From the IMG/VR virus record IMGVR_UViG_3300020198_000018, positions 1 to 57,895 of that record: a DNA stretch of 57,895 bases, one strand, 5' to 3'. The DNA comes from a virus (taxonomy: Duplodnaviria; Caudoviricetes). Positions 18,490-23,481 of this stretch are shown here, one piece after another. The translations under genes and the position numbers were made by a program. The first letter of the stretch is position 1. Each line of letters begins with the position of its first letter. The notes beneath the pieces are model-generated. The model did no database searches. It saw only the letters and a list, made by a program, of their open reading frames with translations, and was not told the origin of the DNA.

Positions 18490-19587
18490 TCAGAATCCAG
18501 AAGAAATAAATATAGGAAGTGGGGCTTCCCATTCGTCATGCATAATATCAATACACAATGAGTCAAATACATTAGGGTCCCATTCAGATAATACTACACT
18601 CATTCTAATAATTAATAATACAGCAGATACTAGATCATCATGATGCCCTTGTTTTGCTTTGAAACTAACACCCGATGCAATAAATCCTTTCAATTCACTT
18701 ATTAACATCCGACTATTAATCACCATTTTATCTTCTTCAATAAGAAATTTTAATCGAGCACACGACGAAATCTTATTACCAAATGTTGTGTTAAATCCTT
18801 TTCTAAATTTTTTAACATGACCTTTACGCAATGGCTCACTTAAAAATAAACCAGGAAATGATTCTTCCCCTAAATTTTCAATTGTAACTAACGCGCTATC
18901 ACCAATAGTATTATTTTCAACAGACCAATATATACTATTCCCACCCCCAATTTCATCTTGAATATATCGCAATACATCACGCAATATTTTACATTGTCCA
19001 TGTATCGGTGTTAAATTATGTTGCCATTCTGCTATCTGGGTGAAACTAGGCAATTCAAACACCTGAATACCGCCATAATCCCCGCCAGTCCCCAAACTTG
19101 GGTCCAATGCAATTAAATACATATGTCCCGCAGATGGTTTTTTATACCACCTGACTTGTCCCATCTTAAATATTGGCTCTATGCCAAGCATTTCAGTTAG
19201 TTTAATACTGTTAATTAATGTTTCATCATATACCAAAAATTCGCAGTTCGATGATAAAATATTATTAGCATAATACCTATGCCCATTTTCAACTTCAATT
19301 AAATCATAAACCGGTTCCTTATGCCCAGTCGGTTCTTTCTGTAACAATCGTAAATTTCCAGTTGATGTTATTACAGAATCACCAATGTTTAATTCATCAG
19401 CAGTTTTTGTCGTGGTTTCTGATACATAAAGTTTATGGTTGGGTGTGCATTCTACCAATGCATTATTTTCAAAAGTTAATCTAACAGTATGTGTTATATT
19501 CATCATACTAACCCCGGCAAAATCTTGAAATCCAGACGGTGTTAATACTTTATATCCCAATGTGTTTGTTTTAAATATGGGGTTCAT
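18490..19587 (-). CDS. terL: Terminase large subunit fragment 4: IntC3 (114 aa) + nuclease domain (251 aa)
   Basis: ...NILSSN|CEFL; RNase H-like LIALDPSLG, VENN and HDDLV motifs. Confidence 0.92.
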   Translation of the reverse strand: MNPIFKTNTLGYKVLTPSGFQDFAGVSMMNITHTVRLTFENNALVECTPNHKLYVSETTTKTADELNIGDSVITSTGNLRLLQKEPTGHKEPVYDLIEVENGHRYYANNILSSNCEFLVYDETLINSIKLTEMLGIEPIFKMGQVRWYKKPSAGHMYLIALDPSLGTGGDYGGIQVFELPSFTQIAEWQHNLTPIHGQCKILRDVLRYIQDEIGGGNSIYWSVENNTIGDSALVTIENLGEESFPGLFLSEPLRKGHVKKFRKGFNTTFGNKISSCARLKFLIEEDKMVINSRMLISELKGFIASGVSFKAKQGHHDDLVSAVLLIIRMSVVLSEWDPNVFDSLCIDIMHDEWEAPLPIFISSGF

Positions 19588-19686
19588 TTAATACCCCTGC
19601 AGAGAGTCATACAACTCCCCAATTGTGATTTGAAAAATATTGCCGTCTGTATCTTGTACTGTTATACCATTATGATGCGCCAGACA
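19246..19686 (-). mobile_element. TerL split intein 3 (IntN 32 aa at 19591-19686; IntC 114 aa at 19246-19587)
   Basis: RREFN|CLAHHNG...* then MNPIFKTN...CTPNH...VYDLIEV...SSN|CEFL; halves are in frame and joined by TAA-ATG. Confidence 0.88.
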
Positions 19687-20328
19687 ATTAAATTCGCGAC
19701 GGAACCTTTCAACCCCTATCCGACCGATTTCTTCTTTTTTCCAGTTTTCATCACGGTCTGGGTGTTCCCACCAGTCTGATTTAAAACTATAGAATCCATT
19801 TCTTCCTATACCATCCGTACGTTCATTTCCATATTCATCGAATATATCTTTACTTTCTTTCCATATAAGAGCAAATTGGTCTTCATCTGAATTGGGGGTT
19901 GATGTGATAATAGCGCGACCACCCGTCGCTAATGTCGGGGAGATAGATGTCCAAAATTCATTTGCAATATTTGGCTGCACATAGCTGAACTCATCGCAAT
20001 TTTTTGTTATAATACAAGAGTTTACAATATATTGATGGTGTGGCTGGGCCACTTCTACAATATCATACACATCAGTTTCTTTAAACATCGTTATTGATAT
20101 TATCTGCAAACTTCCGTTTGTAGTGTCGACATAATCACCAATTGCTAAATTTGATAATTTAATTTTATTATTATTGTTAAAAAAGTAATGCCCGGGGGTA
20201 GCATTAATTACACCCCCATTTTCTAATGTTAATTTATAAGTAACTTTATTTTTAAGTTGTGTTATACCCCGGAAATCTCTCCATCCATCTGGGGTTAGAA
20301 TTTCATATTCAGTGTTTTCAACAAACAT
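19588..20328 (-). CDS. terL: Terminase large subunit fragment 3: IntC2 (110 aa) + extein (104 aa) + IntN3 (32 aa)
   Basis: ...IITKN|CDEFSYV (Walker B), ITSTPN coupling motif, RREFN|C. Confidence 0.92.
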   Translation of the reverse strand: MFVENTEYEILTPDGWRDFRGITQLKNKVTYKLTLENGGVINATPGHYFFNNNNKIKLSNLAIGDYVDTTNGSLQIISITMFKETDVYDIVEVAQPHHQYIVNSCIITKNCDEFSYVQPNIANEFWTSISPTLATGGRAIITSTPNSDEDQFALIWKESKDIFDEYGNERTDGIGRNGFYSFKSDWWEHPDRDENWKKEEIGRIGVERFRREFNCLAHHNGITVQDTDGNIFQITIGELYDSLQGY

Positions 20329-21387: not shown

Positions 21388-22017
21388 ATATAATAATGAT
21401 ATTGAAAGACCACGCCCTGTTGTACCGGTAGTTGTTTGACTTATGATGCGTGAGCCGTTATCAAATTCCATGCTACCTTTATTATAACTGACTACCCCAG
21501 CACGTAGGAAATCAGGACATAATTCATAACCATATCTAATCCGTTGCATGATTTCTTGTGCGCCGGTAAATTTATGTGCTGCGACCAAGATAGTTTGGTC
21601 TGGGTGGAACATTGCATACCAAAGTAAATATGCTGATGCGCAGGTGGTATTATGGCTTAGTATATCGTTTGAGTAAAACCTATGATTACTCGAATCAACT
21701 TCAATATCATACATATTATCAGTATCCAATGTATTAATTACCGAAATAACTTTAGCCGTGCCGTGTTTTGTAATAATCTCATCGTTTAACTGCAAATCTT
21801 TTACAAATACTTCGGTATAATCTTTACGAAATACTATGTGGTCATCTGCACATTCTAAAAATTGTCCATTATCGAGTTCTAATCTCCAAATTTCATATTC
21901 TATAGTCTGTTTTACATCAACCATAGATTCCCACCCAGTATCAGTTTCTATTAACCACTCAGATGCATCGTATATTTGAGTAAATTTTCGATTTATTGTT
22001 TCAGAAAGTTTAAGCAT
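21268..22017 (-). CDS. terL: Terminase large subunit fragment 2: IntC1 (123 aa) + extein (87 aa) + IntN2 (39 aa)
   Basis: ...DILSHN|TTCASAYLLW...FDNGSRI...GRGLSISLLY|C. Confidence 0.92.
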   Translation of the reverse strand: MLKLSETINRKFTQIYDASEWLIETDTGWESMVDVKQTIEYEIWRLELDNGQFLECADDHIVFRKDYTEVFVKDLQLNDEIITKHGTAKVISVINTLDTDNMYDIEVDSSNHRFYSNDILSHNTTCASAYLLWYAMFHPDQTILVAAHKFTGAQEIMQRIRYGYELCPDFLRAGVVSYNKGSMEFDNGSRIISQTTTGTTGRGLSISLLYCLDGETSFVKIRNKATLVEEDICLKDLYIKLLNPLRVIS

Positions 22018-23223
22018 TGTTGTATTGCCTGTTGTTTATTGTTTTTGTATTCGTATTCATTAACATGAATAATGTCATATCCGGCCTGTTTAATGATATT
22101 GTCTCTTAATAGTTCTCGTGCAGGGTTGGTTTTTGCAGGAGAATGCCAATAGTCTCCATCAAATTCTATAACCTTTTTAAGATTAGTATCGATAAAATCT
22201 GGTCTAACATACGTGTTAGCAAGCTCTAAAGTATATTCTTTATTTTTATATGATGTCATATCTTCTCGCAAAAATGTTGCATAATACACATTTGTACAAT
22301 CAATATGTGTAGCTATTTCAGCAAATAATTCTTGTGATATTTTTGAATAGCTAGCTTTTTTAAATGTTTTACTCCATTTTTTTATTTTTTCTTTATGTTT
22401 ATTAATACCATCAATTTCGCCATACTTTTCTATAAACCAATTTATATCTCTAGTTTGTGATTTTGTATATAACTCTTTTGCTACTACTTCATCACCATCA
22501 GCAATATTTAACCAATACGATAATTTAAAAATGCTATTGTCATAATTTTTCATAAATTTAGAATGATTTGTTTTATGTTCAGCATGTCGCTCTTTATCAT
22601 ACCCATGAATAAAATTTTTACTCCATGCCGAATATTTTCCATTATGGTGATACGCAGGGTTATTTTTACCCTGACGTATTTTACAATGCTTAATAGGTTT
22701 TAATTTATCTACATTATATTTCAATTTATATTCGGCAGATGTAACATCATGGATCATAATATGAGTACCTAAATCACCTGTCTTAGCTCCGCATATTTCA
22801 CATACTTGATAATCATATCCTTCTATTTTATCTTTAAACTTCTTTTCGCCTGCAGCTATGCATTTTTTTAATTCATACTCATGTTTATCAATTTTTGAGT
22901 CTAATCTTACTGTTTGATAACATTTATTAGAACAATAATCTTTTGTATAATCGCCATGAATCTTTCCACAAGATTTACACTTGCAATCTGTTTGATTAAC
23001 AATAGCATATATTCTTTTTGAAAAAGAAACATTAAGAGGAAATGTATTAGTTATTTCATAAACTTCATTACGTATCCCCTTTGCAATAACATTATGTTGA
23101 ATGCTGTACTTGCTACTTGATGCTATTATTTCGCTGCATTTCAAAAAAATCGCCGATTGGTATATCATATTCTTCACCTGTGTCTTTATGTTTGATACGT
23201 ATATTTATCTCTTTCGTCAAACA
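21649..23223 (-). mobile_element. TerL split intein 1 with nested endonuclease (IntN 36 aa at 23116-23223; IntC 123 aa at 21649-22017)
   Basis: PRQSGK|CLTKEINIRI...* and MLKLSET...CADDH...MYDIEV...SHN|TT; splicing restores Walker A PRQSGKTT. Confidence 0.9.
21993..23177 (-). CDS. Free-standing Vsr/EDxHD-like putative homing endonuclease with Zn fingers
   Basis: CKSC, CSNKC, CEIC...H; C-terminal RPDF...VIEFDGDYWH...RD...IHVNE; overlaps both intein halves; start GTG 23177 or ATG 23168. Confidence 0.8.
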   Translation of the reverse strand: MKNMIYQSAIFLKCSEIIASSSKYSIQHNVIAKGIRNEVYEITNTFPLNVSFSKRIYAIVNQTDCKCKSCGKIHGDYTKDYCSNKCYQTVRLDSKIDKHEYELKKCIAAGEKKFKDKIEGYDYQVCEICGAKTGDLGTHIMIHDVTSAEYKLKYNVDKLKPIKHCKIRQGKNNPAYHHNGKYSAWSKNFIHGYDKERHAEHKTNHSKFMKNYDNSIFKLSYWLNIADGDEVVAKELYTKSQTRDINWFIEKYGEIDGINKHKEKIKKWSKTFKKASYSKISQELFAEIATHIDCTNVYYATFLREDMTSYKNKEYTLELANTYVRPDFIDTNLKKVIEFDGDYWHSPAKTNPARELLRDNIIKQAGYDIIHVNEYEYKNNKQQAIQQCLNFLKQ

Positions 23224-23481
23224 CTTCCCACTCTGTCTGGGCAGCATATTAATATTAAATCTATAGGAATGATAGCTATTTAAAAGATTTAGTTGATATT
23301 CGAACGGGTCAAATAATAATTTTCCCTTAACTGGGTGTTGAATGTGAAAAAAGTTTTTAGCAAAATATAAGTATCCAAATTCTGGATCCATACAAGAAAT
23401 CATGTCTTGTATTTGCTGTTCAGTCCACTGTTGTTTTATGTGTGCTCTCTTAGTTAGAGCATTATCTACGTTTCTAGCCAT
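23113..23481 (-). CDS. terL: Terminase large subunit fragment 1: extein (86 aa) + IntN1 (36 aa)
   Basis: gp17-like N-terminus (YFAKNF, FEYQ) up to LPRQSGK. Confidence 0.92.
   Translation of the reverse strand: MARNVDNALTKRAHIKQQWTEQQIQDMISCMDPEFGYLYFAKNFFHIQHPVKGKLLFDPFEYQLNLLNSYHSYRFNINMLPRQSGKCLTKEINIRIKHKDTGEEYDIPIGDFFEMQRNNSIK

Follow-up and report, generated by a model that had tools for sequence, protein, structure and literature searches.

The virus contig IMGVR_UViG_3300020198_000018 of IMG/VR, 57,895 bp long and called the window below in its full length, carries on its minus strand, at positions 18490-23481, a gene for the large terminase subunit (TerL) whose coding sequence is distributed over four open reading frames (ORFs), with the halves of three split inteins at the breaks. 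We consider it highly probable that this terL has been fractured by three mobile split inteins, that its four products are trans-spliced into one TerL, and that the arrangement persists as something nearly harmless rather than as a means of regulation. In this we infer splicing, its order, the absence of cross-reaction among the inteins and the co-transcription of the terL ORFs from the features described below.

Four ORFs encode the pieces of one terminase

Six consecutive ORFs fill the minus strand of this region in the order F1, HE1, F2, HE2, F3, F4, where F1 to F4 are the TerL pieces and HE1 and HE2 are endonuclease genes. F1 (23113-23481, 122 amino acids [aa]) consists of a first extein, ext1 (86 aa, 23224..23481), which runs from the TerL N-terminus to the Walker A lysine (..MLPRQSGK), followed by the N-terminal part of an intein, IntN1 (36 aa, 23116..23223), which starts with Cys1 (CLTKEINI..) and ends at a TAG stop (23113-23115). 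F2 (21268-22017, 249 aa) is a cassette in which an extein is flanked by intein parts on both sides: the C-terminal intein part IntC1 (123 aa, 21649..22017), with a block-B-like ADDH motif and the end ..ILSHN; ext2 (87 aa, 21388..21648), from the TT of Walker A (TTCASA..) to ..SISLLY, immediately before the DE of Walker B; and IntN2 (39 aa, 21271..21387; CLDGETSF.., TAA stop 21268-21270). F3 (19588-20328, 246 aa) has the same anatomy, with IntC2 (110 aa, 19999..20328; block B TPGH, end ..IITKN), ext3 (104 aa, 19687..19998), which extends from the Walker B CDEF through a TSTP motif to ..RREFN, and IntN3 (32 aa, 19591..19686; CLAHHNGI.., TAA stop 19588-19590). F4 (18490-19587, 365 aa) begins with IntC3 (114 aa, 19246..19587; block B TPNH, end ..ILSSN) and continues with ext4 (251 aa, 18493..19245; TGA stop 18490-18492), which reaches from CEFL.. 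to the C-terminus and contains the RNase-H-like nuclease domain. The exteins total 528 aa (86 + 87 + 104 + 251), and the four pieces contain no frameshift and no internal stop.

The ORFs are closely packed. HE1 (21993-23177, 394 aa) overlaps the end of F1 by 56-65 nucleotides (nt), depending on whether it starts at GTG 23177 or ATG 23168, and the start of F2 by 25 nt; the 3' end of HE2 (20295-21230, 311 aa) overlaps the start of F3 by 34 nt. At site 3 there is no endonuclease gene, and the TAA of F3 directly abuts the ATG of F4 (TAAATG), with AGGGG 6 nt upstream of that ATG.

In BLASTP comparisons the four exteins cover intact TerLs piece after piece, each meeting the next at the predicted junction with neither gap nor overlap. 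On the 531-aa TerL of Pseudomonas phage PA5oct, residues 6-86 of F1 align with 13-93, F2 from residue 124 with positions from 94, F3 from residue 112 with positions from 182, and residues 116-358 of F4 with 284-528. The same tiling is obtained on the 532-aa TerL of Sinorhizobium phage Phosso, and ext4 is 46-50% identical to the C-terminal halves of these two proteins. PHROG terminase profiles match the four pieces in order (phrog_36964 at 20-99, 387-529, 522-629 and 626-868, with E from 5e-8 to 3e-48), and by these comparisons the ordered matches lie far beyond chance. Terminase_6C passes its cut-off on ext4 (23.3 bits, cut-off 22.6), and Terminase_6N stays below it on isolated ext2 (15.2 bits, cut-off 22). 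Collinear with intact TerLs and possessing both ATPase and nuclease parts, the joined protein is a T4-type (gp17-like) large terminase; the names of its motifs (Walker A, Walker B, coupling motif) follow the T4 gp17 literature.

The junctions can be read from an intein-free relative, L018 (L numbers denote loci of the census described below), in which tblastn places ext1 to ext4 end to end in one frame, at 9173-9430, 9431-9691, 9692-10003 and 10004-10762. Its sequence at the three junctions, marked by a slash, is MLPRQSGK/TTCASAYL, GLSISLLY/CDEFAFVQ and ERFRREFN/CEFLVYDE. Site 1 lies in the Walker A P-loop (GK/T), site 2 at Walker B (LLY/CDE) and site 3 at REFN/C, possibly the insertion site of AceL-TerL. 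An earlier, sequence-only reading of this DNA had proposed four pieces, three split inteins and the segment lengths given above, and the ORF list agrees with it to the codon. Its description of the two middle genes as IntC-extein-IntN cassettes is borne out by the anatomy of F2 and F3 and by homologous cassettes elsewhere, and the tiling and the L018 junctions confirm that joining the exteins restores Walker A, Walker B and RREFN/CEFL in a 528-aa gp17-like protein.

The three split inteins retain the residues of splicing chemistry

Each of the three sites has Cys1, a block-B His, a terminal Asn and a +1 nucleophile (Thr, Cys and Cys, respectively), and the sequence features of class 1 inteins are present at all three. 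The layout is that of atypically split inteins, for which a natural IntN length of 15-37 aa has been reported (PMC13014065): the IntN parts measure 36, 39 and 32 aa and the IntC parts 123, 110 and 114 aa, IntN2 being 2 aa above the reported range.

A search of 5.8 billion proteins gave, at E<=1e-10 and in the near-length class, 1156 relatives of F2 and 1022 of F3; these cassette proteins form dozens to hundreds of clusters among the matches listed. From the 120 listed for each query we aligned 52 F2-like and 92 F3-like proteins of cassette length that cover nearly the full query, the window protein included. Among these matches listed, the residues invariant in the F2-like cassettes are A57, D58 and H60 of block B, H122 and N123 at the intein C-terminus, and C211 and L212 at the start of IntN2, while the +1 residue, T124, is conserved in 90% or more. 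Invariant in the F3-like cassettes are H47 of block B, C111 at +1, D112 and E113 of Walker B, T142-P145, and C215 at the start of IntN3. As far as these alignments go, the best-conserved parts of the inteins are the residues that matter only for splicing chemistry.

The inteins differ in kinship. IntC3 matches CatC, the consensus engineered atypical TerL intein (PDB 6dsl, chain 6dsl_B), at E 1.4e-9 and VidaL at E 4.4e-5, and IntC2 matches CatC (6dsl_B) at E 2.2e-6; IntC1 is closest to the gp41-1 intein (6qaz, E 9.4e-8) and to VidaL (E 1.2e-5) and shows no kinship with CatC. IntN3 alone gave only chance-level matches against the PDB. Pairwise identity in the window is 19-33% among the three IntN parts and 27-38% among the three IntC parts, IntC2 and IntC3 being the pair at 38%. 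Homologues of IntN1 occur in L062, L278-L280, L399 and gene 534 of phage SCTP-2, and homologues of IntC3 in L094 and L099 (59% identity). At site 2 of L186 there is a contiguous mini-intein of 154 aa, residues 1-38 of which resemble IntN2 (55%) and residues 46-154 IntC2 (52%), with a short linker between; this alignment indicates that IntN2 and IntC2 add up to one complete domain.

A complex of F2 residues 1-140 with F1 residues 70-122 was modelled with a score of 0.80, as compared with 0.02 for the best of three controls; 58 of 80 solved complexes attained the mark of 0.80, as did 2 of 110 mismatched pairs. At least 75% of the IntN1/IntC1 contacts agree between runs, with a predicted local distance difference test value (pLDDT) of 71-72 for the partner, and the modelled interface places the K17-C18 region of the IntN1 chain, which contains Cys1, beside H122-N123-T124 of IntC1. 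The model supports binding of IntN1 to IntC1; because similar split-intein complexes have already been solved, this pass may partly reflect likeness, more than proof.

The endonuclease genes at the sites vary between alleles

HE1 and HE2 are free-standing genes. The C-terminus of HE1 gives sub-threshold matches to MTES_1575 (29.3 bits, cut-off 38.2; E 9e-7) and DUF559 (19.2 bits, cut-off 20.6; E 1e-3), and homologues of HE1 stand at the same position in L062 (45% identity), L278 and L280. HE2 has no Pfam hit; its C-terminus matches phrog_22677, which is also matched by an HE1-like endonuclease in the recA-like gene of the window, as well as the C-terminus of the HE1 homologue of L278. A direct BLASTP comparison of HE1 with HE2 was not significant (E 0.32). 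Full-length homologues of HE2 occur at site 2 of L094 (66%), L101 and L173.

When site-2 endonucleases of the window (20295-21230, minus strand), L006 (7555-8478), L399 (1611-2852) and L005 (3650-4675) were compared, a common N-terminal region of ~140-170 aa (40-55% identity) was found, with differing nuclease ends. In the window, L094, L101 and L173 this end appears Vsr-like; in L006, L399 and SCTP-2 gene 225 it is HNH-like, a label that rests on motifs read by eye. As judged from the aligned proteins, homing endonucleases seem to have swapped domains here. At site 3 of relatives, endonuclease genes of ~0.8-1 kb (DUF7487 or GIY-YIG) stand between the same IntN end and IntC start that abut in the window.

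Split terL alleles recur in related phages

Seven collection scans gave 499 loci with extein hits, representing 338 distinct alleles, 297 of which could be assessed at all three sites; the other 41 of the 338 were left out of the piece counts. Labels were assigned automatically, 'split' denoting a stop codon or frame change between extein hits, and ORFs were read by eye in L006, L011, L062, L094, L186 and L399, while for roughly twelve others the hit tables were read. Because intein parts were included in five of the seven queries, alleles with inteins are over-represented and the counts should not be taken as population frequencies. The census output does not include the window itself.

No intein was present in 221 of the 297 alleles. 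One piece was found in 233 (12 of them with contiguous inteins only), two pieces in 47, three in 16 and four in a single allele, L399. By site, 10 alleles are split and 18 carry a contiguous intein at site 1, 51 and 8 at site 2, and 21 and 1 at site 3. The contiguous intein at site 1 measures ~327 aa, starts with Ala and has a LAGLIDADG domain inside. L399 has the order ext1-IntN1, IntC1-ext2-IntN2, an HNH-type endonuclease, IntC2-ext3-IntN3, a GIY-YIG endonuclease and IntC3-ext4; its exteins are 56-79% identical to those of the window, and the same sites are occupied with a different set of endonucleases. L094 combines a contiguous LAGLIDADG-type intein at site 1 with a homologue of HE2 at site 2 and, at site 3, a DUF7487 gene. 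The endonuclease at a given site is, according to the allele, Vsr-like, HNH, GIY-YIG, DUF7487, LAGLIDADG within a contiguous intein, or absent; split states without an endonuclease occur in L095, L171 and at site 1 of L399. Relatives whose exteins are 80-100% identical have zero, one or two inteins.

These two-, three- and four-piece alleles came from the survey of related phages that the sequence-only reading had called for. That reading had also known of no described four-fragment essential enzyme: apparently undescribed it is, but the 16 three-piece alleles, L399 and SCTP-2 show that it is not unique.

A query of viral contigs with F1 returned no further site-1 split allele among the top 80 loci by ext1 similarity. 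The lists of F2-like and F3-like proteins share five longest-contig values (68079, 26361, 8907, 49450 and 24175), which may point to five more contigs with both cassettes and serve as a lead only; follow-up scans with P0206 and P0146 did not return those five contigs, and returned L399. Two loci, L096 (322-1113) and L098 (918-2244), have a second, divergent TerL-ATPase-like stretch, 30-36% identical to ext1-ext3, directly upstream of the main site-2-split terL.

Salicola phage SCTP-2 has a dispersed three-piece terL

In Salicola phage SCTP-2 (MF360958.1, 440 kb) terL lies on three genes, each annotated 'terminase large subunit'. Gene 534 (~429 kb, minus strand) encodes ext1-IntN1, gene 267 (~256 kb, plus strand) an IntC1-ext2-IntN2 cassette, and gene 224 (~216 kb, minus strand), preceded by the HE2-like gene 225, starts with an IntC2 homologue and encodes the C-terminal piece of TerL. 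The pieces are spread over ~210 kb and both strands, 40-210 kb apart, and the complete genome has a single place that matches the C-terminal half of TerL. Because of this dispersal on both strands, RNA cis-splicing is excluded there, and on the sequence evidence SCTP-2, a cultured and viable phage, depends on split inteins homologous to those of sites 1 and 2. It resembles the window in these inteins, in the IntC1-ext2-IntN2 gene and in the HE2-like gene before the C-terminal piece; it differs in having three pieces rather than four, in their dispersal, in lacking a site-3 intein and in carrying a contiguous intein elsewhere. This extra contiguous intein lies at PTIS/C in gene 224. At 95 aa, the IntN2 of gene 267 is exceptionally long, and part of the fold appears to be repeated in it. 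The census loci of SCTP-2 are L005, L090 and L512. A paper discussing the split terminase of SCTP-2 was not found in the searchable literature, as far as its text was accessible.

Source of the DNA and integrity of the assembly

The closest relatives of the window's TerL are those of the jumbo phages PA5oct, Phosso, Atu_ph07 and SCTP-2 and of Rak2-like phages, and the window DNA was also found in lake-water metagenome runs; the window comes from a freshwater jumbo phage. CheckV estimates the completeness of the contig at 17%. In one run (X1) a single contig made by a different assembler spans 18000-23599, and in a second (X2) such contigs span 19115-23599, in both cases with zero differences from the window; X1 and X2 may be source samples of the window. 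Two further lake samples, X3 and X4, contain identical fragments over several gene boundaries, covering parts of the stretch only; a joint in X3 from 21249 to 22229, with 21 letters on its shorter side and seen in one contig, falls below the reliability guide of the tool used and was ignored.

Selection on the pieces

Ratios of non-synonymous to synonymous substitution (dN/dS) were calculated by NG86 and are used qualitatively, dS being mostly >1 (saturated) and several pairs not computable. With this limit, comparison with L094, the closest relative, gave 0.066 for ext1, 0.005 for ext2, 0.029 for ext3 and 0.048 for ext4. The ext2 protein is 100% identical in L094 and L007 at 84-86% DNA identity (dN/dS 0.005-0.009). 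Values for the IntC parts were 0.2-0.33, those for L006 versus L011 were 0.046 (IntC3) and 0.01 (IntN3), and those for the endonucleases were 0.34 (HE1) and 0.05-0.17 (HE2). By these ratios the pieces are under purifying selection and are not decaying.

A pile-up of selfish split inteins is the likeliest explanation

We envisage the following course of events. The four terL ORFs and the two endonuclease genes, which lie on one strand and are tight or overlapping, would probably be co-transcribed, and translation of each ORF would start at an ATG of its own, the overlaps and the TAAATG providing coupling. Each short IntN (32-39 aa) would dock on its cognate long IntC (110-123 aa) and complete a HINT fold. 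Class 1 trans-splicing would then take place three times: a thioester would form at Cys1 and pass to the +1 residue (Thr, Cys or Cys), the terminal Asn would cyclise, and an acyl shift would leave a peptide bond. The product would be one TerL of 528 aa, the intein halves being discarded. Such an arrangement could have arisen by stepwise invasion, the endonuclease genes having been inserted into the inteins or having arrived with them, with none at site 3, and it could persist because splicing makes it nearly harmless, without any regulation of packaging.

Of the explanations considered, the likeliest on present sequence evidence is such a pile-up of selfish split inteins made tolerable by trans-splicing. 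We favour selfish elements because most relatives are intein-free and occupancy varies among near-identical exteins, because the same sites hold endonucleases of five kinds or none, and because the targets are the most conserved motifs of the ATPase.

Several observations weigh against this explanation. The spliced product is itself something we infer from sequence and model. The penultimate His is replaced in IntC2 (TKN) and IntC3 (SSN), block B of IntC1 reads ADDH where TxxH is usual, and Pfam Intein_splicing (PF14890) scores only 22.0, 24.5 and 26.6 bits on the IntC-bearing ORFs against a cut-off of 35.8, as is expected since each ORF holds only the IntC part of the domain. The ATG of F2 has only a weak Shine-Dalgarno-like sequence, the saturation of dS limits what the substitution ratios can say, and ~83% of the genome lies outside the contig, where a second intact terL may be present. 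The main risk is cross-reaction between sites 2 and 3, which would skip or cyclise ext3; it is possible because IntC2 and IntC3 belong to one family, both being CatC-like, and because IntN pieces have been reported, in a review, to be exchangeable between GOS-TerL and AceL-TerL (PMC11766414).

Other readings would give fragmentation a function. It might be adaptive, with ordered assembly gating or timing the terminase, or with the endonucleases excluding competing relatives in co-infection, and we regard this as improbable. All three inteins sit in catalytic motifs, so that unspliced pieces must be inactive; the endonucleases appear to be under purifying selection (0.05-0.34); and multi-split alleles recur in many phages. 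Nevertheless, the prevalence of intein-free alleles (221 of 297), the occurrence of 80-100% identical exteins with none, one or two inteins, and the free variation between alleles in the type and presence of endonuclease at each site are difficult to reconcile with a function of the breaks, and the proposal of the sequence-only reading that ordered assembly gates or times DNA packaging is left without support by the same near-identical relatives. Nor does the window bear any mark of regulatory input: the T4-like late promoter motif TATAAATA, which occurs before HE2, was found 9 times in the window as compared with 11.9 expected by chance, and sigma-70-like sites are at chance level in it (32 found, mean of 33.5 in shuffles). 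A bolder version, which as a whole strikes us as unlikely, would have three non-cross-reacting inteins build the motor in one pot, with the dependence on assembly used as a concentration-dependent packaging delay or, in co-infection, as an endonuclease weapon against intein-free relatives; in this version IntC-extein-IntN cassettes, or 'protein exons', would form a rich and so far undescribed stock in jumbo phages of fresh water and salterns.

It is still less probable that the four polypeptides work as a non-covalent complex in which the intein halves are docking modules only and no splicing takes place. The modelled association of IntN1 with IntC1 would suit such a complex, since association alone would bring the pieces together. 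Against it, TerL is interrupted within the strands of the P-loop and of Walker B, and a HINT domain of 150 aa left there would block the ATPase site. Moreover, nucleophiles and a terminal Asn/Gln that serve only the chemistry are invariant or nearly so in the 52 and 92 cassettes among the matches listed, and the related inteins of the CatC/AceL-TerL family and VidaL are reported to splice (PMC13014065, PMC11766414).

We think it very improbable that the pieces are remnants of a dying terL and that a functional copy is encoded in the 83% of the genome that was not sequenced. With a completeness of only 17%, most of the genome is missing from the contig, and in this 17% no second terL was seen. 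The pieces do not look like remnants, however: dN/dS of the exteins is 0.005-0.07, the ext2 protein is 100% conserved at 84% DNA identity, frameshifts and internal stops are absent, and a single ext4 copy is present in split-allele relatives on contigs of 176 kb (48% complete) and 71 kb and in SCTP-2. The possibility raised with the original proposal, of decaying pieces beside an intact terL elsewhere, accordingly fails as regards decay, while a second gene was simply unseen in a contig of this completeness.

Joining at the level of RNA or translation, through group I introns or read-through of the site-3 TAA, or an error of sequencing or assembly, is the least credible explanation of all, for although the four pieces are in the same frame and only a single stop codon stands between F3 and F4, no family matched 17500-24500 in an Rfam scan with E values up to 1, the ATG of the downstream pieces stands at a position conserved in homologues, relatives have endonuclease genes of ~0.8-1 kb between IntN and IntC at site 3, the pieces of SCTP-2 lie 40-210 kb apart on opposite strands, and contigs of another assembler show the TAAATG junction with no variant. 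The same empty scan disposes of group I or group II introns carrying the endonuclease ORFs, and recoding or read-through at site 3 was rejected on the TAA followed at once by ATG, the AGGGG 6 nt upstream and the homologues split there with endonuclease genes.

Other inteins and neighbouring features in the window

Two further genes of the window, both on the minus strand, are broken by inteins. A recA/uvsX-like gene (11696-14366) is fractured at its P-loop (..VFAGESG/SGKSF..): its N-piece of 80 aa ends in an IntN of only 15 aa (14127-14171), an endonuclease gene follows (12927-14120, 397 aa; HE1-like, phrog_22677), and the C-piece of 413 aa has a 123-aa IntC (12569-12937) that matches the solved VidaL intein at E 1.2e-45. 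A DNA helicase gene (7394-9754) is split at Walker A (..ATGAGK/T..), with an IntN of 26 aa (9230-9307) and an IntC of 135 aa (8813-9217), and only 9 nt, without an endonuclease gene, between the ORFs; it also contains a contiguous mini-intein of 133 aa (8132-8530) at a DE/CH motif, which passes the Pfam Intein_splicing cut-off with 41.1 bits. There are six inteins in ~16 kb of the window, five of them atypically split (the three of TerL, the VidaL homologue and that of the helicase).

Between F1 and an upstream gene of 318 aa lies a hairpin (23497-23523) with a 10-bp stem and A-run and T-run flanks, terminator-like on both strands. On the other side, a 743-aa ORF (16341-18572, minus strand) overlaps F4 and matches a virion structural protein family; its start is probably an internal Met (MDNNLDK.., ~18479), because the homologue in L006 and L011 begins there, and this would leave a 10-nt gap after terL.

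Comparison with known systems

Each of the components, namely split inteins, fractured genes and atypical TerL inteins, was known before, and the four-piece TerL is a genuine, recurrent and apparently undescribed combination of them with no new part; in the literature searched, which did not extend to subscription journals and supplements, no natural protein was found that is joined from at least three pieces by split inteins. If splicing takes place as proposed, nature has already solved the one-pot, ordered ligation of several fragments with short-IntN inteins, and the window's five atypically split inteins would be a candidate non-cross-reacting set for protein semisynthesis. The alleles from zero inteins to four pieces, with five kinds of endonuclease and empty states, would then be a natural series on the breakage of genes by homing endonucleases, and SCTP-2 would show that pieces can disperse, a route from selfish insertion to genes in pieces. 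For annotation, phage classification and completeness tools based on the terminase will miscount such genes.

The window's sites 1 and 2 have the arrangement of the phage genes 'fractured in two' by a split intein and a free-standing endonuclease that were described by Dassa et al. (2009; PMC2677866), namely IntN, a same-strand endonuclease and IntC. In those genes, too, the endonuclease lies between the halves and the downstream half starts inside the 3' end of the endonuclease gene. Vsr-like endonucleases are involved there; their gp41-7 locus lacks an endonuclease, as does site 3 of the window, and one terminase locus has an unusually long C-terminal intein part of 122 aa. The window differs in that the gene is fractured three times rather than once, which creates two internal cassettes, and in that HE1 overlaps IntN1, whereas in the genes of that study the endonuclease follows a spacer of 27-51 nt.

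AceL-TerL, GOS-TerL and Cat-TerL are natural phage terminase split inteins reported to trans-splice in vitro (PMC13014065, PMC11766414). With IntN parts of 25-37 aa, IntC parts of 104-115 aa and Cys+1 they have a layout similar to that of the window's inteins, but in these reports they stand as single inteins out of their genomic context, whereas the window combines two members of the family and the more distant intein of IntC1, with its Thr+1, in one protein. Engineered tandem trans-splicing (for example PMC12707363, PMC7090010 and PMC11168065) joins at least three polypeptides in order by means of orthogonal split inteins and IntC-middle-IntN segments. Those systems are laboratory constructs; the terL of the window would be their natural counterpart, and an apparently widespread one.

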